Shown here: positions 1-19,675 of the stretch, in pieces | Position numbering within the stretch: position 1 is the first letter of the stretch | How the letters are laid out: each line of letters opens with the position of its first letter | DNA from: a virus | Lineage: Duplodnaviria; Heunggongvirae; Uroviricota; Caudoviricetes | IMG/VR virus record: IMGVR_UViG_3300012007_000007 | Span: 163,434-222,157 of that record | Length of the DNA: 58,724 bases | Strand: one strand, 5' to 3' | The notes under the pieces: generated by a model | Databases searched by the model: none | Told to the model about the DNA's origin: nothing | What the model saw: the letters and a program-made list of their open reading frames with translations, nothing else | Program-made: the position numbers and the translations under genes

Positions 1-83
1 TCGGTTACACACATTGCGGGGCAACGCGCAGTGCGGTGTTCGGTATCATCAACCATCTTGATTGCGGTATTAACTGTCGGCAT
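1..83 (-). CDS. Hypothetical protein, 5' part only (MPTVNTAIKMVDDTEHRTARCPAMCVT...), runs off the window
   Basis: ATG at 83 preceded by AAGGAG; TTGCTATATT promoter-like motif at 129-138; frame open to the window edge. Confidence 0.6.
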   Translation of the reverse strand, partial: MPTVNTAIKMVDDTEHRTARCPAMCVT

Positions 84-202
84 GATAACTCCTTGTTGAG
101 AACTTATGGCCCATTCAGGTCTGTAAGTAATATAGCAATTTATCACGCGAGTGAATCACCAAGTTGGTGAAAATTGTTGTAAATTTTTATTTACATATTT
201 CG

Positions 203-275
203 AGCTGACGGTAGGAATCGAACCCACTCATGCAAAGTTTTGCAGACTCGCCCGTTCCCACTTCGGCACGTCAGC
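203..275 (-). tRNA. tRNA-Cys(GCA)
   Basis: Cloverleaf by eye: GCTGACG/CGTCAGC acceptor, loop CTGCAAA, TTCGATT T-loop, U73; weak anticodon stem. Confidence 0.85.
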
Positions 276-284
276 ATAAAGTAG

Positions 285-366
285 TCCCGCAGGCAGGACT
301 CGGACCTGCACGCCACTAGGCACTAGTTCCTAAGACTAGCGTGTCTACCAGTTCCACCACTGCGGG
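285..366 (-). tRNA. tRNA-Leu(TAG)
   Basis: CCCGCAG/CTGCGGG acceptor, CTAGT-CTTAGGA-ACTAG anticodon arm, long variable arm, T-loop TCCGAGT. Confidence 0.9.
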
Positions 367-371
367 AGATA

Positions 372-442
372 TTGGCCAGCCAGGCTTCGGACCCAGCCCT
401 GATGGCTCAAAACCACCCGTGCTACCGCTACACCACAGGCCA
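372..442 (-). tRNA. tRNA-Gln(TTG)
   Basis: TGGCCTG/CTGGCCA acceptor, GGTGG-TTTTGAG-CCATC anticodon arm. Confidence 0.85.
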
Positions 443-448
443 TCATAG

Positions 449-532
449 TCCGGAAGGCGGGACTTGAACCCGCACGGAGTATGCCTCCAACGGATTTTAA
501 GTCCGCATTGTCTACCATTCCAACACTACCGG
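449..532 (-). tRNA. tRNA-Leu(TAA)
   Basis: GCGGA-CTTAAAA-TCCGT anticodon arm, long variable arm, GCGGG-TTCAAGT-CCCGC T arm. Confidence 0.9.
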
Positions 533-536
533 ATAG

Positions 537-619
537 TCCCGAGAGCAGGACTTGAACCTGCACGTCTTGCGGACAGGGGATTTTGAGTCCTCCGCGTCTA
601 CCAGTTCCGCCATCACGGG
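537..619 (-). tRNA. tRNA-Leu(CAA)
   Basis: GAGGA-CTCAAAA-TCCCC anticodon arm, long variable arm, canonical T arm. Confidence 0.9.
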
Positions 620-624
620 TCTTA

Positions 625-695
625 TTGGGGACAAAGGTTTCGAACCTCTAATTCCAGAGTCAGAGTCTGGCGTGCTACCGTTACACCAGTCCCCA
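625..695 (-). tRNA. tRNA-Gln(CTG)
   Basis: TGGGGAC/GTCCCCA acceptor, CCAGA-CTCTGAC-TCTGG anticodon arm. Confidence 0.9.
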
Positions 696-705
696 TCGTT
701 TTTAG

Positions 706-778
706 CTCTACCCCCAGGCTACGACCCTGGAACCTCCCGGTTAACAGCCGGGCGTTCTACCAGTTGAACTGGGGTAGA
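706..778 (-). tRNA. tRNA-Asn(GTT), atypical (C8; T-loop GTCGTAG)
   Basis: TCTACCC/GGGTAGA acceptor, CCCGG-CTGTTAA-CCGGG anticodon arm, G73. Confidence 0.85.
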
Positions 779-1633
779 TTATGTATATACACTTACCAGT
801 GAAAGGTCAGATGGATAATGTGTTCTTTTACCAACCGTCTTGCCGCTTAGATATTTTGGTATGAATTTCTTAAATGTGTAATACAAAGCCACTTTGGATA
901 TTTTTAATTCATTAGAAAAATCCTCTAGCTTTGAATAATTACCGGAATGATACCTATCCCATAATTCCCTGGCACGTTGAATTGCTGCATTATGTAGTTC
1001 AATCCTTGGTCTTTTAGTGATTTTCCCGGAGACGGTATTTATGCCAGATGATGCATTCGCTGCACATATTTTGCCACACGGTTGACCCTTTTGTTTTGCA
1101 TAAGCAAATATTTTACTTCTTATAGAAGTGCTCTGCCCATGATACAAATTTCTTCCACGGACCCATTCTTTAGCATCTGGCGGCATTCGGAATACCTTAG
1201 ATTCACCGGTTATATAATTGGTATACCACCGGGTTCCGTAATGTGAATTTCGCTGGCCCCGTTGTGTTATTGCCGTTGTATACCCAACTACTTTAGCAAA
1301 TTGACAACGCAATGTTTCGTATATTCTGGCATTTATATATCGACTGTGGTTATCATTAGTACTACGCATTCTCCAAAACGCAAACATCATTTTACGGTAT
1401 TCATTTGATTCGGGTGGATACAATTTCGTTAATAGCCAATGGCATATAAAGTGTTCTTTAGCAGTAAGCAACGCTCGGTTGCATAATCGGTCTACACCAC
1501 CCAATGCCTTTGGTATAATATGGTGTAGTTCATAGTATTGGCCATGTTTTTGTTGCCAACGACGCTGCTCATAATCAGCTTGCGCTCGCAAAACGATACT
1601 TGCGTATATTCTATTGTAATTCATAACAAACAT
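779..1633 (-). CDS. Free-standing HNH homing endonuclease with C-terminal HTH-like region
   Basis: ELHHIIPKALGG...RALLTAKEHFICHWLL HNH motif; AT-rich; inside the tRNA cluster; TATAAACT motif at 1660-1667 upstream. Confidence 0.85.
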   Translation of the reverse strand: MFVMNYNRIYASIVLRAQADYEQRRWQQKHGQYYELHHIIPKALGGVDRLCNRALLTAKEHFICHWLLTKLYPPESNEYRKMMFAFWRMRSTNDNHSRYINARIYETLRCQFAKVVGYTTAITQRGQRNSHYGTRWYTNYITGESKVFRMPPDAKEWVRGRNLYHGQSTSIRSKIFAYAKQKGQPCGKICAANASSGINTVSGKITKRPRIELHNAAIQRARELWDRYHSGNYSKLEDFSNELKISKVALYYTFKKFIPKYLSGKTVGKRTHYPSDLSLVSVYT

Positions 1634-1671
1634 CCGGCAATGTTTTATGTTCTGCCTTCAGTTTATAGGGA

Positions 1672-1733
1672 ATGCTAGGGTAAGACTATGTCAAACATAG
1701 GTCAGGCAGTGCCGGCTGCTTGTCCCCTAGCAC
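1672..1733 (-). other. Branched stem-loop between tRNA-Tyr and the HNH gene
   Basis: GTGCTAGGG...CCCTAGCAT closing stem enclosing GCAG-CCGGCA-CTGC and CTATGT-TTG-ACATAG hairpins. Confidence 0.5.
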
Positions 1734-1796
1734 TACTTAAACTACAACATGTTTATCCAATTTATATAATTATATGAATTGATAGAATTTACTTAA

Positions 1797-1881
1797 TGCC
1801 AGCGGTTGGACTCGAACCAACGAAAGCAGTTTAATGCGAGAGGGTTACGGCCTCCTGGAATTGCCACTATCCGACGCTGGC
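1797..1881 (-). tRNA. tRNA-Tyr(GTA), C33 variant
   Basis: GCCAGCG/CGCTGGC acceptor, GGAGG-CCGTAAC-CCTCT anticodon arm, long variable arm. Confidence 0.88.
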
Positions 1882-1882
1882 T

Positions 1883-1952
1883 TGGTGGAGCATTTCGTAT
1901 GCAAGCCCCCAGCATTAGAGCCAAGCTCAACAGGCACCATCTATGAAGCCCC
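1883..1952 (-). ncRNA. 70-nt tRNA-like RNA with Ala-type ends (GGGGC...GCTCCACCA), no canonical cloverleaf
   Basis: Ends pair G1:C, G2:C, G3:U, G4:C, C5:G followed by A-CCA; fills the gap between tRNA-Asp and tRNA-Tyr. Confidence 0.55.
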
Positions 1953-1962
1953 ATATTTTTAA

Positions 1963-2036
1963 CGATGCCTGAGAGATTCGAACTCTCGAATGTCGGTTAG
2001 ACAGACCGATGTGTTAGGCCACTTCACCAAGGCACC
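1963..2036 (-). tRNA. tRNA-Asp(GTC), U37 variant
   Basis: GGTGCCT/AGGCATC acceptor, TCGGT-CTGTCTA-ACCGA anticodon arm, G73. Confidence 0.85.
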
Positions 2037-2044
2037 ATTCTTAG

Positions 2045-2117
2045 TGCCGCCGGGAGGAATCGAACCTCCGACACGGGGATTTTCAGTCCCCTGCTCTACC
2101 GACTGAGCTACAGCGGC
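2045..2117 (-). tRNA. tRNA-Phe(GAA)
   Basis: Canonical cloverleaf, GGGGA-CTGAAAA-TCCCC. Confidence 0.95.
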
Positions 2118-2127
2118 AAACTGTTCG

Positions 2128-2202
2128 TCCGCGACTCTCGACTTGAACGAGAACATCTCCGCCTTATCAGAGCGGCGTGTTAACCAATTACACCAGACGC
2201 GG
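2128..2202 (-). tRNA. tRNA-Ile(GAT)
   Basis: CCGCT-CTGATAA-GGCGG anticodon arm, TCTCG-TTCAAGT-CGAGA T arm. Confidence 0.88.
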
Positions 2203-2206
2203 ATAG

Positions 2207-2279
2207 TAGCGCCGCCGGGATTCGAACCCGAGTTCCATGAATGAAAATCACGTGTCCTAGGCCTCTAGACGACGGCGCC
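2207..2279 (-). tRNA. tRNA-Glu(TTC)
   Basis: GGCGCCG/CGGCGCT acceptor, GTCTAGAGGCCTAGGAC D arm, CGTGA-TTTTCAT-TCATG. Confidence 0.92.
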
Positions 2280-2294
2280 ATATTAGTTTGTTCA

Positions 2295-2371
2295 TAGTCA
2301 CTGAGAGGCTCGAACTCCCGACCTCCGCGTTCGTAGCGCGGCGCTCTGAATTCCAACTGAGCTAAGTGACT
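2295..2371 (-). tRNA. tRNA-Arg(ACG)
   Basis: AGTCACT/AGTGACT acceptor, CCGCG-CTACGAA-CGCGG. Confidence 0.92.
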
Positions 2372-2375
2372 GTAG

Positions 2376-2449
2376 TGGAACGTGACGGGGCTCGAACCCG
2401 TAACCTCCTCGTTGCGAACGAGGCGCTCTTCCAATTGAGCTACACCCCC
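2376..2449 (-). tRNA. tRNA-Ala(CGC) with 1-nt acceptor-stem bulge
   Basis: 5' GGGGGTG, 3' CAC-G-TTCC-A; CCTCG-TTCGCAA-CGAGG; G3:U70 retained in the bulged register. Confidence 0.88.
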
Positions 2450-2457
2450 AAAGTTAC

Positions 2458-2531
2458 TGGAACGTGACGGGACTCGAACCCGTAACCTCCTGAATGCAAA
2501 TCAGGCGCTCTTCCAATTGAGCTACACCCCC
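2458..2531 (-). tRNA. tRNA-Ala(TGC) with 1-nt acceptor-stem bulge
   Basis: Same body as 2376-2449; CCTGA-TTTGCAT-TCAGG. Confidence 0.88.
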
Positions 2532-2539
2532 ATAGTTAC

Positions 2540-2615
2540 TGGACACATATCGGGCTCGAACCGATGACCTCCTGCCTGCCAGACAGGCGCTCTACCAAAA
2601 CTGAGCTAATGGCCC
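2540..2615 (-). tRNA. tRNA-Ala(GGC) with 1-nt acceptor-stem bulge, different sequence body
   Basis: 5' GGGCCAT, 3' ATG-T-GTCC-A; CCTGT-CTGGCAG-GCAGG. Confidence 0.88.
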
Positions 2616-2677
2616 ATAAAGAAAAACACATCCGGAATTTCAATCTGCAGCAACGCTGCTCGAACGCTGCACTTTAG

Positions 2678-2751
2678 TGGAACGTGACGGGGCTCGAACC
2701 CGTAACCTCCTCGCTGCCGGCGAGGCGCTCTTCCAATTGAGCTACACCCCC
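2678..2751 (-). tRNA. tRNA-Ala(GGC) second copy, C33 variant, 1-nt acceptor-stem bulge
   Basis: Same body as 2376-2449; CCTCG-CCGGCAG-CGAGG. Confidence 0.82.
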
Positions 2752-2765
2752 AAACGGTTAAACGG

Positions 2766-2798
2766 AAAGGGCGGTTGCCGCTGATGCAACCGCCCTTT
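2766..2798 (-). terminator. Intrinsic terminator directly upstream of the first tRNA-Ala (attenuator terminator)
   Basis: Perfect 13-bp inverted repeat AAAGGGCGGTTGC-ATCAGCG-GCAACCGCCCTTT followed by CCGTTT on the minus strand. Confidence 0.8.
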
Positions 2799-2845
2799 TC
2801 GTCTCTTGTAAACCTTTCGTCTACCTGGAACTAGGTTGCATCAGC
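2780..2845 (-). promoter_or_regulatory. Antiterminator helix of a putative attenuator
   Basis: Perfect 12-bp inverted repeat: minus-strand GCTGATGCAACC (2845-2834, last leader codons) pairs with GGTTGCATCAGC (2791-2780, terminator 5' arm and loop). Confidence 0.75.
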
Positions 2846-2938
2846 CTCCGCGTGTTCTGCGAAATCCAACACGGCAAAATAGCGGTTACCCTGTGCGGCA
2901 CCCGCTAAGTTACAAATATTGTTGAATTGCTTCTGCAT
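2831..2938 (-). CDS. Putative attenuator leader peptide MQKQFNNICNLAGAAQGNRYFAVLDFAEHAEADAT (35 aa, 8 Ala)
   Basis: Translated by hand (not in the ORF track); AAGGAA ribosome-binding site upstream of ATG; last codons coincide with the antiterminator strand. Confidence 0.72.
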   Translation of the reverse strand: MQKQFNNICNLAGAAQGNRYFAVLDFAEHAEADAT

Positions 2939-2969
2939 CGTTAATTCCTTTGACGTAATGTTTATAACA

Positions 2970-2998
2970 ATTGTAGAAATAAATATCCCGTTTTGCAA
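2970..2998 (-). promoter_or_regulatory. Sigma70-like promoter of the leader/tRNA operon
   Basis: TTGCAA (2998-2993), 17-nt spacer, TACAAT (2975-2970); a late-like TATAAACA follows at 2966-2959. Confidence 0.65.
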
Positions 2999-3018
2999 GA
3001 CTGTAAGTAAAAAATAAG

Positions 3019-5490
3019 TTATTTTTTCCTGTCGCGGACGCAGTACACCGTGAAATACCCCCGGAGTTCCCTCAGGGAACCCTCGGCCGTTATCGTTATC
3101 TTCCCCTTTGACCGGTCCAGCTCCGCGACGGCGTACAGGGTCCCGTCCTCTTCCCGGGAAGTCTCGTTGTCGTCATCGGGAATATCGTCGTCAGCTTCGC
3201 CGATTATTGTCCATGTTCTCGCCGGTATTCCCCTCATCCCCTTCCGGAGCTCCCGGGAATTCCCGCCCCTCCCGGGAGGAATCACCAGCGGAATCATGAC
3301 CCTGCCTGTGTTTGACGGCATGTCGACGTCGCTTGCCGTGGCCGGCATGGTGAAACCGGCATCCTCCATGGAACGGATGTCCAGCGCCGGGAACCTCAGC
3401 CCGAGCTGCGGCAGCGTCCGGTCGATGTTGATTCCGAACTCCTCGGTACCGGTCTCGTAGTAGCGGGACTCGTCGAGGTCTTCATCCACGGAGACCCCGT
3501 CCTCCGCGTCCCGGTCCCTCTCGGGCCGTACCGCCTGGTGCCGGCGTTCCATGTTCCCGTCGACGAAACCCTCGAACAGGCATTCGGACACGGTATCCCT
3601 CCCGTCCCCGGGGGTTGCCTTCACCGGGAAGTCCCCCTGGTGCGATACCCGGAACTTGCGGAACACCGAGAGGCGGTCGTCGTCCATGTCGAATTCCGCC
3701 GTCGAGCCGTGCCGCATCGCCATGGAGATGAACTCGTCGACCGTCGGTAGGCGCCAGCCTTCCGGTATGGCGGTGGGGACGTATTGCGCCCGGTACTTGA
3801 CGAAGTTCCTTCCCGGCGTGGAGATGTCGTCGACCACGACCGGCTGGCCGTTCACCGTGTATGACGGCGGGTACGACCGGCAGAAGCCTAGCGGGCTGGC
3901 AATCTCGAGCGCGCACCAGTCGTTGAACATGATGGACATGGTACCGTCCTCGGCGTAACTGGTCACATCGTGGTTCTCGGCTCCCGGAATCGGGTCGCAG
4001 TCGTCCCCGCCCAGGTTCTCCGAGCGCCATTTCTTGTAGAGCGAGCAGCTGCTGTCGTAGTTGGCGGTCCCGAGGCCGATGTCCGACTGTACCTGGCTGA
4101 GGACGGCGACTTCGTCGGCACGGTACACGGAGATGCCGCCTCCCGGCATACGGAGTACCGACAGGTTCCGGTATTGCGGTCTCGTGTCTTCCGTGTCCTC
4201 CTCCACGCACTGGTCCCCGTCGTATTGCACCGGGTCCCCGGGTTCGGCAGTGGGGTCATCCGCCACGCACAGGCTGACTTCCGTCCTGAACGAGTACCGC
4301 GCCTGCACCAGCCGCATGTCCTCGTCGTACCGCCTCCATCCCTCCTCGACGGCCTGCCTGTCCGCCGCGAGCCCGTCACCGCGCATGATGTTCCGGAACG
4401 GCACCGGTATGGTCGACACGGGTTCCAGCAGCCACGTTGTCCCGGCATCGGTAACGGCGCGCATCCTGCCCCCTTCAATTTCCATGTTGCGCGCCTTCCC
4501 GCTGGACGGCTTCCTGGAGAGCGCGCCCGCTATCCTGCCCGCCATGAGCCTGGCCCAGCCGAGACAGAACCTGTTGTCGCGTTCGCGGGCCGTGCGGAGC
4601 GCCGCCTCGTACCTGCGGTAGTCCCTCTTGGTGTACGGTGTGCACAGCCTGTAGAATGGCGCTCCCAGCAGTTCCGAGAGTTCCCGCTCGGAATACTTGT
4701 TGTCGCCCTTGCGCTCGTCCACGTTGTCGTGGGCGTGGTTCCACCGGTTGTTGACGTGCATGAGCCGGCCGTCCGGGCCGATGTCTATCCCGAGCATGGA
4801 CTCCCCGTAGAGGGGGTCGTCCTCGGTCATCGTCTCGAAACCCGGTAGGACGGCAAGGTAGAGCTTCACCATGGACAGCATGGTGGTACCGTCCTTGGCG
4901 GTGCGGCGGTTGAATGAGTACGAGTCGAACATGCTCTTGCTGTTGAGGTGGCACCACCCGTGGGGCTGCGTGTACTTGTAGTATGGCTTCCCGGTCTCGA
5001 ACCGGTCCAGCCATATGATTCGGTATCTCCTTGGACCGTAGCTGATTTTCCTCAGTTCGCGCTTCAGTTCCTTCCAGTTGTCCGCCGCGGTCCCCCCGTA
5101 GCGCTCGGTAAGTTCCTTGAACGATAGCTCCGTCCCTCCCGTGGCGAGGTGGCGGGTGTATTCCTCGAAGTGCGCGATGGATATTATGCGGATGTAGTCG
5201 CGCAGGTCGGCCAGCTGGCGGAAGTCCTCGTCGCCGGTACCGAACAGCAGTTCGCCGAAAGCGATACGGGCAGCCCCGGGAGCGAACTTAATCTTGCACT
5301 GGCCGTCACGGAAGAACTGCCTTCTGAGTTCCATGTACGCCGCCCTGGTCCACGAGGTTATCCCGCGGTTCCGCGCAATCTCGTCGTATATGCGTTCCAG
5401 CTCCATCCTGTTGGGGAGCGAGAGCAGGACCTTCTTCGTGTAGCGGTATGCGTCGCCCTCGGAACCGGGGCCCAGTTCTTTTTCCGGCAT
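3019..5490 (-). CDS. Large hypothetical protein (823 aa) with FISUMP/DUF1566-like C-terminal motifs
   Basis: PEGWRLPTVDEF and terminal YCVRD motifs; start set at MPEKEL because the longer ORF overlaps a terminator and a structured RNA. Confidence 0.65.
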   Translation of the reverse strand: MPEKELGPGSEGDAYRYTKKVLLSLPNRMELERIYDEIARNRGITSWTRAAYMELRRQFFRDGQCKIKFAPGAARIAFGELLFGTGDEDFRQLADLRDYIRIISIAHFEEYTRHLATGGTELSFKELTERYGGTAADNWKELKRELRKISYGPRRYRIIWLDRFETGKPYYKYTQPHGWCHLNSKSMFDSYSFNRRTAKDGTTMLSMVKLYLAVLPGFETMTEDDPLYGESMLGIDIGPDGRLMHVNNRWNHAHDNVDERKGDNKYSERELSELLGAPFYRLCTPYTKRDYRRYEAALRTARERDNRFCLGWARLMAGRIAGALSRKPSSGKARNMEIEGGRMRAVTDAGTTWLLEPVSTIPVPFRNIMRGDGLAADRQAVEEGWRRYDEDMRLVQARYSFRTEVSLCVADDPTAEPGDPVQYDGDQCVEEDTEDTRPQYRNLSVLRMPGGGISVYRADEVAVLSQVQSDIGLGTANYDSSCSLYKKWRSENLGGDDCDPIPGAENHDVTSYAEDGTMSIMFNDWCALEIASPLGFCRSYPPSYTVNGQPVVVDDISTPGRNFVKYRAQYVPTAIPEGWRLPTVDEFISMAMRHGSTAEFDMDDDRLSVFRKFRVSHQGDFPVKATPGDGRDTVSECLFEGFVDGNMERRHQAVRPERDRDAEDGVSVDEDLDESRYYETGTEEFGINIDRTLPQLGLRFPALDIRSMEDAGFTMPATASDVDMPSNTGRVMIPLVIPPGRGGNSRELRKGMRGIPARTWTIIGEADDDIPDDDNETSREEDGTLYAVAELDRSKGKITITAEGSLRELRGYFTVYCVRDRKK

Positions 5491-5510
5491 CTTAATTGTA
5501 TCCTGTATTG

Positions 5511-5538
5511 AAAAAAATGGCGGGGTTTCGCCCGCCCC
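5511..5538 (-). terminator. Intrinsic terminator after the tRNA-Gly/ncRNA unit
   Basis: GGCGGG-CGAAAC-CCCGCC followed by ATTTTTTT. Confidence 0.75.
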
Positions 5539-5550
5539 AAATATAGCAAA

Positions 5551-5807
5551 AGTTGGAGCGCATGCGCAACCCCGGCGGACTGACAGCCGTAAGAACGCAC
5601 CGCGGCTAAGCCGCACCGTCGACCATAACGCCAGCCGTTTAGACTCCTTGCGGAGGGCCGTCGCCACAGGACAGCGCAACCGTTGCGCAGCACCGGGCCG
5701 TCATCCCGCTTATCGCGGACCCCCAGGTTTGCCCCTCGGCCTCCCGTTTCGAACCGGGAAGCTCCGGAATGGCCAAGCCCGCGTGGGGCGGCGCATGCAC
5801 GCCAACT
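5551..5807 (-). ncRNA. Candidate 257-nt structured ncRNA of unknown class
   Basis: 17-nt closing inverted repeat (one mismatch, one G:U on the minus strand); several internal hairpins; begins 5 nt after tRNA-Gly and is followed by a U tract and a terminator. Confidence 0.7.
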
Positions 5808-5812
5808 CTTAG

Positions 5813-5885
5813 AGCGGGAAAAGGGATTCGGACCCTCGGCATCGACCTTGGGAAGGTCGCGCTCTGCCAACTGAGCTATTCCCGC
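5813..5885 (-). tRNA. tRNA-Gly(CCC)
   Basis: GCGGGAA/TTCCCGC acceptor, CGACC-TTCCCAA-GGTCG, U73; TTTTGCTATATTTG motif 8 nt upstream. Confidence 0.92.
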
Positions 5886-5992
5886 TGATACCACAAATAT
5901 AGCAAAAATATCTACCGGTGGAACGAAAAATCTTCTAAAAAATCAATTTCCTGTCGTTCCGGGGATTGCTATCACGTGCGATACCACGGTAC

Positions 5993-6223
5993 CTATTTCT
6001 TTATGGATACCCCCATCCCGCCAACATCGAGGAGCCTCCCGTCGGTGAGGTAGAGCCTTACGAACGTGTTCCCGAAGGAGTCCTCCATGGATTCGGCCTT
6101 CTTCACGTTGTAATAGACCTGCGTATAGCAGTGGTTGTACCTGCAAAGTTCGAGGACGACAGTATTCTTCGCCGGGAAGGCAAATGACACGACGAATGCG
6201 ACAATGAACAGAATCTTCTTCAT
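5993..6223 (-). CDS. Small exported protein (76 aa)
   Basis: MKKILFIVAFVVSFAFPA signal-peptide-like N terminus. Confidence 0.65.
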   Translation of the reverse strand: MKKILFIVAFVVSFAFPAKNTVVLELCRYNHCYTQVYYNVKKAESMEDSFGNTFVRLYLTDGRLLDVGGMGVSIKK

Positions 6224-6233
6224 ATCCGAGAGT

Positions 6234-6398
6234 TTAGTAAATCTGGTACTCGGTATCGCCACACACCTTGGTGGAGTCGCTGGTCGTCTGGCACTGGTAC
6301 AGGTAGCTGGAGCCGTCATCCTTGGAGCATCCCTGGAGGGTGTAGGCCATCAGGGCAAGGAGGCCGACAAGCAGTATTACGCAAATATAGCTACGCAT
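6234..6398 (-). CDS. Small lipoprotein (54 aa; MRSYICVILLVGLLALMAYTLQG-CSKDDGSS...)
   Basis: Translated by hand; hydrophobic stretch plus LQGC lipobox-like motif; fills the gap between ligase and the 76-aa gene. Confidence 0.6.
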   Translation of the reverse strand: MRSYICVILLVGLLALMAYTLQGCSKDDGSSYLYQCQTTSDSTKVCGDTEYQIY

Positions 6399-6405
6399 GA
6401 TGTCC

Positions 6406-8514
6406 TCACTTGAGCAGGTCCAGGAACTGCTGCAGGGTTTCCGGGGTGTATACCGTTATGTCCTGGCCGGCACGCTTCAGCTGGTCTATCTTCTGCACCT
6501 TGGAAGGCCCGGCGTTTTCGCCCATGAGGACCACGTTGCACTTCTTGGTTATTGACGAGCAGATGGTGCCGCCGTTGGCCACAACCATGTCCTTGAACAC
6601 ATCGCGGTCCAGCTTCTCGAAGGTGCCGGTCATGATGCACACCTTCCCGGCGAGCTTGGCCGACTGGACTTCCTTCACTTGCTGGGCTACCCCCCACGTG
6701 GCAAGTTCGGCAAGGTCGTCCGCATACTTGGTCACGAACTCGCAGAACTTCCCGGATATTACCGGGGAAATCCCGGCCTTCTGCGCACGGTAGCAGAAGT
6801 CGTCGATGAACCCGGTAGGCTCCCCGTCAGTGTAGAGACGGATGAACCCGCCGGAATCCTTGACGCACTGGGCCACCGCCGGGGCGACCTGGTGTCCGAT
6901 ACCCGGGATGGAGAACCCCTCGATGAGCTGGTGCAGGTAGTTGGACTTGGACTTCTCGATGCTCTGCGTGAGCTTCCTCGCGCCGGCCTCGGTCTTGCCG
7001 CATGCATCCATGATGTCCTGTTCAGTAAGGACGTAGAAGTCACTGAAGAAATGGAGCTTCCCCGCCACCAGCAGCTGTTCCACTATCGACTCGCCTATGC
7101 CCATGATGTTCATGCAGTCGCGGGACACGAAGTTGGTGAGTTTTCCGCCAATCTGTGTCTGGCATTCCTCGTTCGAGCATACCCATGCCACGAGTTCCCT
7201 TCCCTCGGAATTAACCTGGCAAGCCAGGTCTCCGCCGCAGCAGGGGCACTTCACCGGGCGCAGGTAACGGGAATAGGCCCTTTCCCCTTCGGTGCTCGGC
7301 ACCCACGGACTGACATGCGGAATCTTGTCCTTGTCGCACTTGGCACGTTCGACCTCGTAGGTATCCTTTGAACGCCCGGTCTCGGTACACTTCACCAGTT
7401 CCGGGATGATTTCGCCCGCCTTGCGGATTACCACGTGGCAACCCCGGTGGAGCCCGAGGTAGTCGACGAGGTCCCAGTTGTGGAGGGAGCAACGCGATAC
7501 CGTGGTCATGGCCAGGTGGACAGGCCTGATGATGGCGACGGGCGTAATGGCGCCGGACATGCCGATTGACTCCTCTATGTTGAGAAGTTCAGTCTCCTTC
7601 TCTTCCGGCGGGAACTTGTATGCACGGTAGAAGTTAGGGGACTTCGCGGTGTAGCCGAAGCGATTCTGGTCCAACTTGTCGTCCACCTTCAGCACCACGC
7701 CGTCGATGGTGTAAGGCTGTTCGAAACGCTTCTCGCGCATCTTCTCGGCCAGGGAGACTACTTCGTCTACCGTATCGGCAACCCAGTGCTCCGGTACCTC
7801 GAAACCCATCTCGGCGAGCGTATCGATGTCCTTGGCCTGGCTTCCGTTCGGACTCCCTTCCACGATAAGGTACGACACGAAGGACAGCCCGCGCGACTCG
7901 ACCTCGTCAGGGTCATGTGACTTGAGGGTTCCGGCAGCGCCGTTCCTGGGGTTGGCGAACGCCTTCTTGCCGTCGGCGATGAGCTGGTCGTTTATTGGTT
8001 CAAAGTCCGCGTACTTCCATACGGTCTCTCCGCGTATCTCCACCTTGCCGGGCAACGGAATCCTGGTAAGCACTCCCTTGACCCGAAGGGCGTTCTCGAA
8101 GACCGAATCGCCGACGTTGTCCTTGCCGCGGGTAACCGCGTCCACCAGCTGGCCGTCCCGGTACTTGAGCGCGAGGCCGAGGCCGTCGAGCTTGTATTCG
8201 CCCTCCAGTCGGGTGACGCCGCGGTTGAACATCATCATCGCCCATTCGCGCGTCTCCTCGATACCGTTGGAGTTCGCGATGGAAATCATGGGAATCTCGT
8301 GACGGACCTTGCGGAAACCGTCAGCCCCGTCCTCCACGTGACGCGTGGGGGAGGTGTCGAGGATGAAGTTCGGGTTCGCCGCCTCGAACTCCTTGAGCTG
8401 AATGTAGTTCCTGTCGTAAACGTCGTCCGGTACGGACGACGTGCCCGCGGCATATGCACTTGCCCACTGGGAAAGTACACAGCACATTTCCGTGTATTGC
8501 TTGAAGTCTATCAT
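6406..8514 (-). CDS. ligA: NAD+-dependent DNA ligase
   Basis: YKLDG adenylation motif, AVTRGKDNVG, FANPRNGAAG, DGVVLK, AYKF, OB fold, Cys zinc finger, HhH and C-terminal BRCT. Confidence 0.97.
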   Translation of the reverse strand: MIDFKQYTEMCCVLSQWASAYAAGTSSVPDDVYDRNYIQLKEFEAANPNFILDTSPTRHVEDGADGFRKVRHEIPMISIANSNGIEETREWAMMMFNRGVTRLEGEYKLDGLGLALKYRDGQLVDAVTRGKDNVGDSVFENALRVKGVLTRIPLPGKVEIRGETVWKYADFEPINDQLIADGKKAFANPRNGAAGTLKSHDPDEVESRGLSFVSYLIVEGSPNGSQAKDIDTLAEMGFEVPEHWVADTVDEVVSLAEKMREKRFEQPYTIDGVVLKVDDKLDQNRFGYTAKSPNFYRAYKFPPEEKETELLNIEESIGMSGAITPVAIIRPVHLAMTTVSRCSLHNWDLVDYLGLHRGCHVVIRKAGEIIPELVKCTETGRSKDTYEVERAKCDKDKIPHVSPWVPSTEGERAYSRYLRPVKCPCCGGDLACQVNSEGRELVAWVCSNEECQTQIGGKLTNFVSRDCMNIMGIGESIVEQLLVAGKLHFFSDFYVLTEQDIMDACGKTEAGARKLTQSIEKSKSNYLHQLIEGFSIPGIGHQVAPAVAQCVKDSGGFIRLYTDGEPTGFIDDFCYRAQKAGISPVISGKFCEFVTKYADDLAELATWGVAQQVKEVQSAKLAGKVCIMTGTFEKLDRDVFKDMVVANGGTICSSITKKCNVVLMGENAGPSKVQKIDQLKRAGQDITVYTPETLQQFLDLLK

Positions 8515-8571: not shown

Positions 8572-9285
8572 ATGCAAATAGATATAGACTACTTCGGATG
8601 GCCAGAAAAGTTCACCTATATGGTAGAGTTCAACAACGCCATTTTCGAGAGCCTGGAACCTTCCCGGGAGGACCTCTTTATAAGACGAATGAATGAGGCA
8701 TTTCCCGGATTTTCCGCCAAAGTCATACCGAACATGCTTGGATATCCCATGGGATGCGTCATTGTGTACCGTGGAATACTGGACGATTGCGCTCTCGACG
8801 AGCTGACGGAACGTGCCGAGGCATTCTCCTACGCCACTACAGACCATGCGGACAAGAACGTAATCATATTCAAGCCGAACAACGCTCCATCCGGGCTACC
8901 ACCGGAAAGCCGATACATTCACCTGAGCCCGGTAGACTCCCTCGATTCCACCGGCATACGGTGCAAGTCTTCCGGGAAATTCGAGACATACGAGCCAAGA
9001 ATATACCTTTTCCCACTTTCATCACTGGTAGACCCGCACTCCCCACAAGACAAAATGTATGATGAACTTGAGAAAGAATGCATAAAAATAGCCAGGCTGT
9101 TCAACGACACCTACCTGAAGAAAAAAGTCATCGAGCAACGAGAAATCTACTATATGTACCTGGTAGACCTCCCAACAGCATTCCAGCGTTATGACGATTT
9201 CTCGTTCGACAGGCCATCAGTGTACATATTGAATAACATCACACCGGACAAAGTCACCAAAATAGGAGTTCTCGAAAATTCTTAA
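8572..9285 (+). CDS. Hypothetical protein, possibly with an ADP-ribosyltransferase-like C-terminal domain
   Basis: Clean AT-rich ORF; YIHLSP...GIRCKS...YEPRIYLF loosely resembles ART-fold signatures (weak). Confidence 0.5.
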   Translation: MQIDIDYFGWPEKFTYMVEFNNAIFESLEPSREDLFIRRMNEAFPGFSAKVIPNMLGYPMGCVIVYRGILDDCALDELTERAEAFSYATTDHADKNVIIFKPNNAPSGLPPESRYIHLSPVDSLDSTGIRCKSSGKFETYEPRIYLFPLSSLVDPHSPQDKMYDELEKECIKIARLFNDTYLKKKVIEQREIYYMYLVDLPTAFQRYDDFSFDRPSVYILNNITPDKVTKIGVLENS

Positions 9286-9301
9286 ACCAGGAGTTTACAA
9301 C

Positions 9302-10168
9302 ATGAAACCCATAGCAATCAGTGTAAATGGCGGTGGAGCCCTCGGTATAGGCCCCTTGGCCTTAATGTGTAGGCTTGAGCAGGATATTGGTAAAAAGATT
9401 GGCGATATTGCAGTCGCATTTGCCGGTACGTCCACCGGAGCAATCATTGCTGGCGGCCTGGATGAAGGCTATTCTGCCCATGAACTATTCGACCTCTATT
9501 ATAACAATCTTGGCAAGATATTTACGAAATATTCATGGTACAAGCGGTTACAACCCACTTGTCCAACCTACGACAACACAAACCTCATTAATATTCTAAA
9601 GAGCAAATTCAAGGGAAACGTATGTGACTGGAAAAAGCCCATATTCATTCCGACTACGCACACCAATGGCAAGAGTGTTGAGAAGGTATGGGACCTGGGT
9701 GACAAAAATGTTCCTAAATGGTTTTCCATTTTAACCAGCACGGCAGCTCCGTCGTATTTTGATGTTGTAGTGAAGGATGGACAGTCCTATATTGATGGTG
9801 GTTGTTGGGCAAATTCACCCATAGCTGTATTGAACGCTGGCTTGAAGAAATCATCATACAATGGTAATCTGAAGATATTGGCATTTAATACTGGAATGGA
9901 CCACCCAAATAATAAAATAGGAAACAAGACGTTACTCGGTTGGGCCGACTACATGCTTACCGAATGGGTCGCTCGCGCTGGTAAAAGCAATGAATATGAA
10001 GTTAGTGCTGACATTGGCGCAGATAATGTTGCTGTTGCCTCCCCCTATGCCGACAAGATTCACAAGATGGATGACGTGTCTAAGAAGCACCTGAACGAAG
10101 TGATTGATATCTGGGAGAAATATTATGAAGAAAATAGAAAATACTTCACCAAGTTCGTTACAGGTTGA
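9302..10168 (+). CDS. Patatin-like phospholipase
   Basis: GGGALG oxyanion loop, GTSTG nucleophile elbow, TAAPSYF and DGG catalytic Asp. Confidence 0.92.
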   Translation: MKPIAISVNGGGALGIGPLALMCRLEQDIGKKIGDIAVAFAGTSTGAIIAGGLDEGYSAHELFDLYYNNLGKIFTKYSWYKRLQPTCPTYDNTNLINILKSKFKGNVCDWKKPIFIPTTHTNGKSVEKVWDLGDKNVPKWFSILTSTAAPSYFDVVVKDGQSYIDGGCWANSPIAVLNAGLKKSSYNGNLKILAFNTGMDHPNNKIGNKTLLGWADYMLTEWVARAGKSNEYEVSADIGADNVAVASPYADKIHKMDDVSKKHLNEVIDIWEKYYEENRKYFTKFVTG

Positions 10169-17250: not shown

Positions 17251-17556
17251 ATGACACTGGACGAACTGCTGGCAATGAACCCGAACCTGGGAAAGATGTC
17301 GGGCTTCATGAAGGAACACCCGGAATTCCCGGTGAGGTTCTGGGATGACGGAACGGTGGACATCACCATACCGGAAACCGTCAGGATTGCGAGCTTCGTG
17401 GAGAAGTTCCGCTGCCCGTGCTGCCAGTCGCCAACCGAAGGGCCGTATATCCAGACTGACAAGGAAGACATCAAGGGAACTTTCCGGAAATGCAATGAAT
17501 GTTCAATCCGGTTCTTCATCCACAACAAGGTCAAGTTCGGCGGGACCGCTAAATAA
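17251..17556 (+). CDS. Small zinc-ribbon protein
   Basis: CPCC...CNEC. Confidence 0.6.
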   Translation: MTLDELLAMNPNLGKMSGFMKEHPEFPVRFWDDGTVDITIPETVRIASFVEKFRCPCCQSPTEGPYIQTDKEDIKGTFRKCNECSIRFFIHNKVKFGGTAK

Positions 17557-19675
17557 GCTCCGATGCCTCAGCCAGCTCGCAACATGCCGAGAAGATGTTA
17601 TCGTCGAGCGTCGCCTTCACGTCCACGTTCACCATATGGTCAGACGCTGATGACTGACCGGCCTTAAACAGGCAGTTCACGTTCAATGTGTAAGGAAGGC
17701 TGAACGTGTACGACCCGGGTATATTGAACGTCCTGGTGACTCCCCCGATGTCCAGCACGCACACGTAGCACTTCGGTACATTGCCGGGAATGCTCGCGCC
17801 TATGCCTTCGGTAATCTTCACTTTTACGACCACATCCACCGAGTAGAGGGTATCCTCCATTACCTTGAACGGGCTTGACTGGTTGGTAATTAGGGAGGTG
17901 CCCGTACCAACAACCACATAGGAATGCCCGGTACTGGTATAGTGCCGGTTCGTCGTAGGCGTGGATGTCCATGACGTAGTACTCCCGGTCCCGGACTGGA
18001 GCATCATGCCTTCCGTAGGGGCATTGGATGGAGGAAGCGCATGCAGAACGGACGACATGTCCAGCGTAACACCCGACGACATGTTGTACCCAATCTCGAA
18101 TGTTCCGGACGAATTACGCAAGTTAGCGAAGGCAATCGTCGATGCGGAATGCACATGGTCGGCTGGCGCGACATACACATATCCGTCGGATGACGGGACA
18201 GTAGTACCGGGTGAACTTGTGCCGCTTATCGGCTGTATGTGAGAACTTTCCGGCGAATCCGGTTCGTCCGACGGCACGGCAATCTCGACCAGTCCCGTAA
18301 CCTTTTCGACACCGTCAGTCGTTGCCGCAGTCGCCGGGAAAGTTATTTCTTCGCTACCTACGCCGGTTACGTGGCCCGTCGAGGTTACAGTCAGGCTAGG
18401 CTCATGAAAAGTTCCGCCGAATCCTGATATCGCATCGTATGCGAATTCTCCACCCGCGTCGCCTATCCCGCTCTTGCTGTGGGCGATACCTTCGGCCACG
18501 GTACTGGTAAGGACGTTTTCATCGGGTTCCCCGGGAGTTCCGATGTTCAGGTCTATCTGCCTGGTATAATGGGACTCATCGCCATCGCTGACGATGGTCC
18601 CCTTTCCAGGTACCATGGTATAGTTGCAGGCGATTGGGACAAACGACCCGGTCTTCGGACTGCCTGATGACGCACCGGCTTCCTCCACCCACCTGTAGAA
18701 CTTGTCAGGCTGTCCATCCTGACGGAGGCAGTAGACTTTATCAATGATTCCATATGATGGCAAGATTGGAACTATTTCAACATATGAACAGTCGGATATG
18801 CATGACGGCATATTGACTGCCGGAATTTTTCCTTGTGGACCGGTTACAACTAGTCGCTCTGCACATATACGCTTACCAAAATACTTCCCGGATGGTGGCC
18901 TCGGTACATCACGAACTAGCCTGATATATCTACAGTTACCGTAAGGAATATGATAAAGCGCTATACTATTTCCATCTAGATATAATGCCGGCATCATTGG
19001 GGCAGAACCAGAACCCCTCAAATAGCCACCGTAATGAACCAGGTAGTCCATGAAGTAAAACTCCATTTCGCCCACATAGGCTAAGCACGTGCCGCCCGGT
19101 AGTGCGTTATACCCATATTCATCCGTCCCATTCCATTCTGTTGACCTCAATTTCTGCCCATCGTAACCCGCATAGTGAATTAAATCCTCAAAGTCATTTG
19201 CCCTTGGAACACGCCACCCATCAGCCAAACCAAATTCTTCCAAGTGGCCTTGCAAGTAAGTTATTGCTGCTCCACTGTATAATAGCCCATACCGTTTTCC
19301 ACTCTGCCCATATTCTTCCTCATTATACTGATAGTAAGCTGCCTGAACGACAGGAGCACTGTAATACGATTCGGGTGGAATAAGAGGGTTGCTTGCATCT
19401 TTAAACTCTAATCCTGGGAATACCCAATCCAAATTTTCGGTCAGCCATTCCTGATTCCCAATCCGTGTTGTCCCATACGTTCTTCCACCAATATCAACAG
19501 CACCATGTGGTCCTGGCTCGGGCGGAATTACTTCATCCATGCTATCTATCCCAATCCACCAGTTCTTGTTTTCCGGGTTGCCCGCCAGGACACCGACCGG
19601 GTCTTCCGACTCGTCGCCGAATGGGACCAAGTCCCTAATTCGGTAGTGGGTCATGTCGTATATTGACTTCTCCAT
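17549..19675 (-). CDS. Tail-fibre/receptor-binding protein with a FISUMP (Fib_succ_major)-like domain
   Basis: TTRIGNQEWLTENL, YGLLYS, GWRVP, GTDEYGYNALPGG, YIRLVRD; shaft paralogous to 19677-21245. Confidence 0.8.
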   Translation of the reverse strand: MEKSIYDMTHYRIRDLVPFGDESEDPVGVLAGNPENKNWWIGIDSMDEVIPPEPGPHGAVDIGGRTYGTTRIGNQEWLTENLDWVFPGLEFKDASNPLIPPESYYSAPVVQAAYYQYNEEEYGQSGKRYGLLYSGAAITYLQGHLEEFGLADGWRVPRANDFEDLIHYAGYDGQKLRSTEWNGTDEYGYNALPGGTCLAYVGEMEFYFMDYLVHYGGYLRGSGSAPMMPALYLDGNSIALYHIPYGNCRYIRLVRDVPRPPSGKYFGKRICAERLVVTGPQGKIPAVNMPSCISDCSYVEIVPILPSYGIIDKVYCLRQDGQPDKFYRWVEEAGASSGSPKTGSFVPIACNYTMVPGKGTIVSDGDESHYTRQIDLNIGTPGEPDENVLTSTVAEGIAHSKSGIGDAGGEFAYDAISGFGGTFHEPSLTVTSTGHVTGVGSEEITFPATAATTDGVEKVTGLVEIAVPSDEPDSPESSHIQPISGTSSPGTTVPSSDGYVYVAPADHVHSASTIAFANLRNSSGTFEIGYNMSSGVTLDMSSVLHALPPSNAPTEGMMLQSGTGSTTSWTSTPTTNRHYTSTGHSYVVVGTGTSLITNQSSPFKVMEDTLYSVDVVVKVKITEGIGASIPGNVPKCYVCVLDIGGVTRTFNIPGSYTFSLPYTLNVNCLFKAGQSSASDHMVNVDVKATLDDNIFSACCELAEASELI

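Follow-up and report, generated by a model that had tools for sequence, protein, structure and literature searches.

Organization of the locus

The stretch of DNA analyzed here (58,724 nt; hereafter "the window") is the end of a 222-kb phage record in IMG/VR that is 78% complete. Its minus strand carries 17 tRNA genes in the order Ala (four genes), Arg, Glu, Ile, Phe, Asp, Tyr, an open reading frame (ORF), Asn, Gln, Leu, Leu, Gln, Leu, and Cys. The first four tRNAs have the anticodons GGC, GGC, TGC, and CGC, and 13 more follow within the window. The extent of this cluster as given in a first-pass annotation of the window had to be corrected, because the island runs past the window start, where 13 further tRNAs on the same single strand bring the total to 30.

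An attenuator-like element sits at the head of the island (Table 1). The layout that the first-pass annotation had described, consisting of a promoter, a Shine-Dalgarno (SD) sequence, a 35-codon ORF, an antiterminator, a terminator, and tRNA-Ala, held base for base. A leader ORF equipped with an SD sequence and an ATG lies downstream of a conserved promoter; that it is translated is an inference. Between this ORF and the first tRNA gene lies a GC-rich hairpin with a U-rich tail, which has the form of an intrinsic terminator and whose termination activity is likewise inferred. The sequence GGTTGCATCAGC, which comprises the end of the hairpin 5′ arm plus six loop bases, is perfectly complementary to GCTGATGCAACC at the end of the ORF, and the two strands can form a helix of 12 bp. 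The first tRNA-Ala(GGC) gene begins 14 nt past the hairpin.

Table 1 Features of the putative attenuator module and the tRNA genes behind it (window coordinates; lineages are defined in the text)
Feature	Position	Strand	Basis or remark
−35 hexamer TTGCAA	2993..2998	−	Sequence and consensus promoter scan
−10 hexamer TACAAT	2970..2975	−	17-nt spacer from −35; site listed by consensus scan
TATAAACA motif, at or near the transcription start	2959..2966	−	Invariant in lineages a–d and G001
Shine-Dalgarno sequence AAGGAA	2945..2950	−	6 nt upstream of ATG
Leader ORF, 35 codons, ATG at 2938, TAG at 2833-2831	2831..2938	−	
Antiterminator 5′ strand (region 2), GCTGATGCAACC	2834..2845	−	Last four sense codons of the ORF
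Spacer hairpin GUAGAC/GUUUAC between stop codon and terminator	2808..2824	−	Predicted fold
Antiterminator 3′ strand (region 3), GGTTGCATCAGC	2780..2791	−	Terminator 5′ arm end and loop
Terminator hairpin, 13 bp, 7-nt loop, −23.1 kcal/mol	2766..2798	−	Arms 2798-2786 and 2778-2766
U-rich tail TTTCCGTTT	2760..2768	−	Interrupted in the window sequence
17 tRNA genes behind the switch, first tRNA from 2751	202..2751	−	ARAGORN, Rfam

Transcription and genomic context

The promoter scan found no sigma-70-like site between the hairpin and tRNA-Tyr, the tenth tRNA gene, and the gap between the hairpin and the first tRNA is too short for a promoter. Promoter-like sites near 1640-1515 might feed the second tRNA block independently. 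Between the tenth and the eleventh tRNA lies a 284-codon ORF without a Pfam match (window 779-1633, minus strand). A gap of ~950-1000 nt is found at the same position in relatives (L003 and G002), which suggests that a gene within the tRNA array is conserved at this place.

A phage RNA polymerase might ignore terminators; no RNA polymerase gene was recognized in the 78%-complete record. The search for a T7-type enzyme was also without a match in 14 control genomes, and only the negative result for multisubunit polymerases therefore carries weight. The sole sigma-like signal was one weak match resembling sigma-70 region 2 (genome positions 126177-126296). An SD core is present at ~47% of the crude gene starts in this phage, compared with a background of 13%. 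Host-type transcription and SD-led translation are plausible because no polymerase was recognized and about half of the gene starts have an SD core.

The TATAAACA motif is possibly a second, phage-type promoter. A related word, TATAAACT, occurs 21 times in the genome versus 4.2 occurrences expected, a 5-fold excess, and is often found directly after terminator hairpins and 10-30 nt ahead of gene starts (for example at 2966-2959 on the minus strand of the window). By analogy it may represent a phage-type promoter word, recalling the T4 late TATAAATA. A further motif of 16 nt, AGATTGA(A/C)ANNNCGGA, is preceded by a hairpin and lies between the first and the second tRNA (window 2646-2631, minus strand). 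It was seen in every lineage (the window, L003, G001, and G002), and a second copy is located at genome position 159839, 3.6 kb beyond the window start and just before a large structured RNA of the island; the G001 counterpart of the motif before the large structured RNA is on L099. The motif contains a TTGACA-like hexamer, without a usable −10 element ahead of the next tRNA. Elsewhere in the window, a 708-residue protein (17549-19675, minus strand) matches the Fibrobacter succinogenes major paralogous domain (PF09603, E = 1.4e-9), a possible hint at a host range among Fibrobacter or Bacteroidota of the rumen.

Related phages carrying the module

Relatives were gathered via a neighboring protein of 823 residues, DNA patterns, and a peptide profile search. 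The module was found on 14 contigs, which represent ~7 sequence lineages of related huge phages from gut and rumen metagenomes, and it is always positioned at the head of the main tRNA array. Lineage a comprises the window's own sequence (WIN in lineage comparisons) and L090; lineage b comprises L003, L047, L056, L070, and L071; lineage c comprises L088 and L089; lineage d comprises L004 and L091; and G001 (L097), L136, and G002 (L098) make up the remainder. The leader peptide profile, searched against 1.8 billion representatives, retrieved three clusters only and missed the leaders of G001 and G002, which were located via the neighboring protein and by reading the heads of tRNA arrays. A DNA search of the annotated phages in INPHARED returned matches to tRNA-Ala only and no relatives. 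Two other ways of finding relatives were discarded: of 13 matches to the exact 16-mer of the spacer in viral contigs, 12 were due to chance, and a terminator-only pattern returned just the same two relatives. Other tRNA block heads in these phages were inspected for similar modules, and neither a hairpin nor a frame was present; one such block head has a plain promoter directly before the tRNA.

The promoter hexamers hold their position across lineages. The −35 element of the relatives reads TTGCCA, TTGAAA, or TTTACA, and the −10 counterpart at the same place reads TACTAT, TATAAT, TACATT, or TAAACT, while the sequence of the 16-17-nt spacer between them varies. The SD core AGGA is retained in lineages a-d, and the SD motifs of G001 and G002 are weak. 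The distance from the hairpin end to the first tRNA is 14-25 nt across lineages. The assumption that this first tRNA is always tRNA-Ala proved false, as it is tRNA-Phe in L056, L071, L088, L089, L004, and L091 and is replaced by a degenerate tRNA-like sequence in L003, L047, and L070. In L003 this sequence (9245-9330) takes the place of the window's first tRNA-Ala(GGC), and the same holds for L047 and L070. It has kept a G3:U70-type acceptor end and a GGC anticodon-like loop and is not called by ARAGORN.

The leader reading frame

The leader frame is open in every lineage, with a length of 33-45 codons, and both other frames contain stops. The chance of an open frame is 0.07-0.17 per lineage and ~2e-4 jointly for four independent lineages. 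In public data the leader ORF is present as a called protein of 35 amino acids. The window and L003 differ in 13 of 35 residues, and the flanking untranslated parts are nearly identical; the window and L090 are distinguished by four replacements and no other change over ~300 nt. Lineage d has an in-frame insertion of 30 nt. The peptides of G001 (L097:859-957, plus strand) and G002 (L098:239-349, minus strand) cannot be aligned with the others past the first residues, and some residues, Cys9 and an R-Y-F triplet, are retained within lineages a-d. Such a lack of alignable sequence between clades would be expected of a frame that needs only to be read, although this is inferred from sequence alone.

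The window leader contains eight alanine codons in 35 residues, including all four GCN codons, as the first-pass annotation had stated; a content this high is reached by ~1% of proteome windows. Tandem runs of regulatory codons are absent from the frame. The antiterminator strand overlaps with the last five to six codons, of which three encode Ala, and for this reason a ribosome stalling there would favor termination. This caveat, already raised in the first-pass annotation, stands. Some 26 of the 34 codons are far enough upstream for stalling to favor read-through. The rare leucine codon TTA, which accounts for 4% of the Leu codons of the phage proteome, occurs exactly once in each of the leaders of lineages a, b, d, and G001, each time at another position in the frame, and the phages of these lineages each carry a tRNA-Leu(UAA).

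A rival explanation is that the frame is an ordinary small phage protein gene followed by a leaky intrinsic terminator, with the tRNAs being produced by unregulated read-through. In favor of this view, the ORF has its own promoter, SD sequence, and terminator, it is called as a protein in public data, and Cys9 and the R-Y-F triplet are conserved within lineages a-d. Against it, the peptide is unalignable between clades and is found in only three clusters among the 1.8 billion representatives, and the differences between the window and L090 are the four replacements and nothing else in the ~300 nt. This view also leaves unexplained the co-varying complementarity of the ORF end, the fixed position of the stop codon, and the compositional match to the tRNAs (see below). 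We consider it unlikely.

Mutually exclusive RNA structures and their covariation

Our favored reading is that the module is a leader-peptide attenuator, which requires two conformers that exclude one another. Folding of the full-length leader yields the terminator, whereas a transcript cut just before the 3′ arm folds into the 12-bp alternative helix instead. Pairing of the ORF end with the 5′ arm in folds of the nascent transcript was obtained for the window, L003, L088, L004, and G002 and was partial in G001. Among shuffled leaders, only 2 of 2000 matched the 12-bp alternative helix (p ~0.001 for the window; ~0.01 for L004). When all 16-nt windows of the leader were scored against the terminator 5′ arm plus loop, the ORF end of the window sequence was the best partner of the terminator 5′ half (−24.1 kcal/mol). 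The ORF-end segment ranks first in five of six lineages and second in G002, where another segment pairs better.

In all lineages, the stop codon follows the pairing segment after 0-1 nt. The ORF end resembles the terminator 3′ arm and tracks changes in it: the ORF ends GCUGAUGCAACC, CUGCAACUGC, GUUGCACUGG, and GUUGCACCG co-vary and pair with arms ending in GGGCGG, GGCGG, CCAGG, and CCCCGG, respectively. The predicted energies of the alternative helix and the terminator are −24.1 versus −23.1 kcal/mol in the window and −18.3 versus −19.3 kcal/mol in lineage d, and the two conformers are balanced in lineages a-d. In G001 and G002 the alternative helix is bulged and weaker than the terminator (−14.9 versus −18.4 and −13.9 versus −23.7 kcal/mol, respectively).

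The terminator hairpin itself was found in every lineage. In a register-checked alignment of nine sequences, 98% of the cells are paired and 5 of 13 pairs have changed on both sides; the covariation score was reached by 0 of 500 shuffles, and no slid register comes near. The MAFFT alignment A4 of the 3′ half was excluded from these counts, being out of register for lineage d. Six loop-proximal pairs of the stem, GGUUGC/GCAACC, never vary, an immobility that would be explained by a second constraint on this half of the stem, namely its pairing with the ORF end. In lineages a-c the U tract is interrupted; it reads TTTCTTTATT in d and TTTTTT in G001 and G002; lineage d, G001, and G002 thus have runs of 6-8 U after canonical GC-rich stems.

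One could argue that the hairpin is a processing or stability element, for example the 5′ boundary of a tRNA precursor whose shape is influenced by the alternative pairing. Consistent with this, the hairpin and the first tRNA downstream of it are separated by just 14-25 nt in all lineages, and the U tract is imperfect in lineages a-c. The canonical stems and long U runs of G001, G002, and d speak against it, as does the absence of a recognized phage RNA polymerase, and it would account for neither the ORF nor the composition match. This explanation appears very unlikely to us.

Further structure is predicted around the two main conformers. A small spacer hairpin between the stop codon and the terminator is found in every lineage, with a lineage-specific sequence (UUCCUUAU/AUAAGGAA in G001, UUUCC/GGAAA in G002, and GUCUUU/AAAGAC in d). 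Hairpins are predicted inside each ORF, without evidence that any of them is conserved or competes with region 2, and the folds contained no clear 1:2 anti-antiterminator or pause hairpin. In full-length folds of the window leader, the SD region GGAAUUA (2946-2952) pairs with the stop codon and the bases following it, UAGUUCC (2827-2833, minus strand), and the folds of L003 and L004 contain a comparable predicted pairing. Such a pairing might keep the leader RNA silent after its release, or it might serve as an anti-antiterminator, both of which are mere possibilities.

A second rival retains an RNA switch and assigns its control to a factor acting in trans (a protein antiterminator or terminator-promoting protein, an sRNA, or a tRNA), with the reading frame being incidental or secondary. 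The 3′ untranslated part is indeed better conserved than the ORF between the window and L003, the conserved spacer hairpin within the antiterminator loop could be a binding site, and the SD sequences of G001 and G002 are weak. On the other hand, the frame is open, and both other frames are closed, in all lineages, the stop codon is found 0-1 nt past the pairing strand everywhere, and the composition of the frame tracks the tRNAs. Neither a T-box nor any other Rfam leader was matched at E values up to 1. We therefore regard control by a trans factor as unlikely.

The attenuator layout proposed in the first-pass annotation held and is conserved across diverged relatives, with an open frame, an abutting stop codon, and co-varying helices. 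A hairpin kept by a relative that has lost the ORF, which would have refuted the proposal, was not seen, the frame being open in all lineages examined. The alanine content of the leader is not kept family-wide.

Leader composition follows the downstream tRNA repertoire

Each leader was compared with its own proximal tRNA array, in which tRNAs were counted until the first gap of >1.1 kb, and the proteome of this phage served as a proxy background for the other lineages. In the window, 28 of the 34 codons fall within the set of 11 amino acids served by the array, which confirms the count of the first-pass annotation. Residues for served amino acids amount to 28/34 in lineage a, 30/34 in b, and 31/44 in d, compared with backgrounds of 56%, 66%, and 32%, respectively. 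This excess is significant in all three (p = 0.001 for a, ranging from 0.001 to 0.004 across tests; p = 0.003 for b; p = 1.5e-7 for d). Residue counts were also correlated with the number of tRNA genes per amino acid in five lineages (rho = 0.72, 0.65, 0.70, 0.69, and 0.47), and these values were reached by 1, 9, 0, 7, and 668, respectively, of 4000 length-matched windows drawn at random from the proteome. The composition match of G002 alone is not significant. With scores centered per amino acid, the true pairing of leaders and arrays scores best of 120 permutations. The lineages are few and partly related, and the permutation result could partly reflect shared descent.

Individual amino acids illustrate this match. 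Trp is confined to the two leaders whose arrays include a tRNA-Trp, Pro is confined to the G002 leader, and five Leu codons stand against five tRNA-Leu genes in both lineage b and G001. The insertion in lineage d consists of Tyr, Phe, Ala, Gln, and Gly, with the first three of these in abundance; the array of this lineage begins with Phe, Ala, Ala, Tyr, and Ala. In the window, the alanine share of the leader codons (8/34) equals that of the proximal tRNA genes (4/17).

Two finer levels of correspondence were not supported. Decodability of the leaders by whole tRNA sets did not separate matched from mismatched pairs (21/120 permutations), and the choice of synonymous codons did not match the anticodons beyond expectation.

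The first-pass annotation had offered two readings of the leader, a sensor of charged tRNA-Ala and a broader sensor of tRNA supply. Alanine-specific sensing is not supported. Alanine richness is confined to lineages a-d, and the alanine content is only 3/32 (9%) in G001 and 5/36 (14%) in G002, although tRNA-Ala heads both arrays; elsewhere it corresponds to the alanine share of the tRNA genes, and the arrays of several relatives start with tRNA-Phe. The broader reading is supported by the observation that, lineage by lineage, the composition of the leader reflects the set of tRNAs encoded behind it, with the function itself remaining an inference. Because the composition of the frame is roughly proportional to the numbers of the tRNA genes behind it, the quantity sensed is most likely general decoding capacity rather than alanine alone. 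The leader has the look of a multivalent gauge, since it lacks a tandem codon run and represents 11 or more amino acids.

Proposed mechanism

Taken together, we favor, with moderate confidence, the interpretation that the module is a ribosome-mediated (leader-peptide) transcription attenuator which heads the phage tRNA island and acts as a multivalent sensor of decoding capacity. Its anatomy, conservation, covariation, and compositional match to the tRNAs are shown by our data. That the frame is translated, that transcription terminates at the hairpin, and that the response runs in the proposed direction are inferences without any experimental evidence, and there are no transcript, 3′-end, or ribosome data.

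According to this model, host RNA polymerase would start at the conserved promoter and make a leader of ~200 nt. A brisk ribosome would cover the last four codons and the stop codon as the terminator 5′ arm emerges; with the 12-nt strand at 2845-2834 masked, the 13-bp hairpin would form and transcription would end 14 nt before the first tRNA. A ribosome could be late owing to slow initiation or to a stall within approximately the first 27 codons for want of charged tRNA. The free ORF end would then pair with 2791-2780 upon emergence of the latter, no terminator would form, and the tRNA genes would be transcribed. The frame that the ribosome has to traverse is composed of the served amino acids, roughly in proportion to the numbers of their tRNA genes. 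It follows from this model that the phage probably produces these tRNAs only at times of slow decoding.

A bolder reading has, in our view, slightly less than even odds and is more doubtful than the attenuator model as such. In this reading, the leader is a proportional sample of the island and would act as a phage-encoded gauge of decoding capacity, turning on ~17-30 tRNA genes upon failure of the tRNA pool of the host. Host shut-off, heavy late translation, or tRNA-cleaving defense systems are possible causes of such a failure. If this bolder reading is true, the tRNA supply of the phage would be inducible and feedback-controlled rather than constitutive.

Phage tRNAs are usually discussed as static aids to codon usage or as replacements for tRNAs destroyed during infection, and, to our knowledge, the control of their expression is largely undescribed. 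If the attenuator model is correct, the phage would gauge decoding speed directly and reply with tRNA synthesis, closing via tRNA a feedback loop for which classical attenuators use amino-acid synthesis. The reach of leader-peptide attenuation would then include viruses, as well as target genes that are non-coding. With ~240 nt the module is a compact and testable element, and it offers a signature for regulated tRNA islands in metagenomic phages, namely a short frame that ends in a copy of a terminator 3′ arm, the terminator being located just before a tRNA.

Comparison with known attenuation systems

T-box riboswitches (RF00230) bind uncharged tRNA directly and do not need translation. They resemble the phage module in being leaders in which a choice between terminator and antiterminator reports tRNA charging. 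The phage module differs from them by having a conserved ORF instead and by the absence of a T-box match: within positions 1-7000 of the window, RF00230 was not matched at E values up to 1. In the same region and at the same cutoff, the Rfam amino-acid leader families (His, Trp, Thr, and Leu) gave chance-level matches only, tRNAs aside.

In the attenuator of the trp operon (trpL), a terminator competes with an antiterminator, and termination yields the leader RNA as a product in its own right (see also PMC6614838). As proposed here for the phage, the position of the ribosome decides between the two structures. The trp leader differs in that it consists of 14 codons, among them two neighboring ones for Trp, is divided into four defined regions, and responds to one amino acid only, whereas the phage leaders have 33-45 codons and no codon run. 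The pheST operon of E. coli, which is controlled by attenuation via the pheM leader, belongs to the translation apparatus. It is similar to the phage system in that a leader-peptide attenuator acts on a component of the decoding machinery and not on a biosynthetic pathway, and it differs in that it controls a synthetase, is Phe-specific, and is chromosomal.

In enterobacteria, multivalent attenuators are known from the ilvGMEDA leader (Ile/Leu/Val) and the thr leader (Thr/Ile). Like the phage module, these have a short frame close to the promoter in which several amino acids are enriched together, an intrinsic terminator ahead of the first gene under control, and an antiterminator which excludes the terminator via a common strand and is masked by a ribosome at the stop codon. 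They control biosynthetic enzymes, whereas the genes behind the phage module are tRNAs, and the signal would be restored here by tRNA and not by an amino acid. Moreover, the phage module lacks tandem codon runs, represents at least 11 amino acids roughly in proportion to tRNA gene number, has its antiterminator strand inside the last codons, shows no clear 1:2 pause hairpin, and is phage-borne. No description of an attenuator controlling tRNA genes was found in the full-text literature searched, including a paper on attenuator surveys. The attenuator logic of the module is thus known and comes closest to that of the multivalent ilv and thr leaders, whereas its tRNA-gene targets, its phage carrier, and the proportional make-up of its frame differ from the classical systems.
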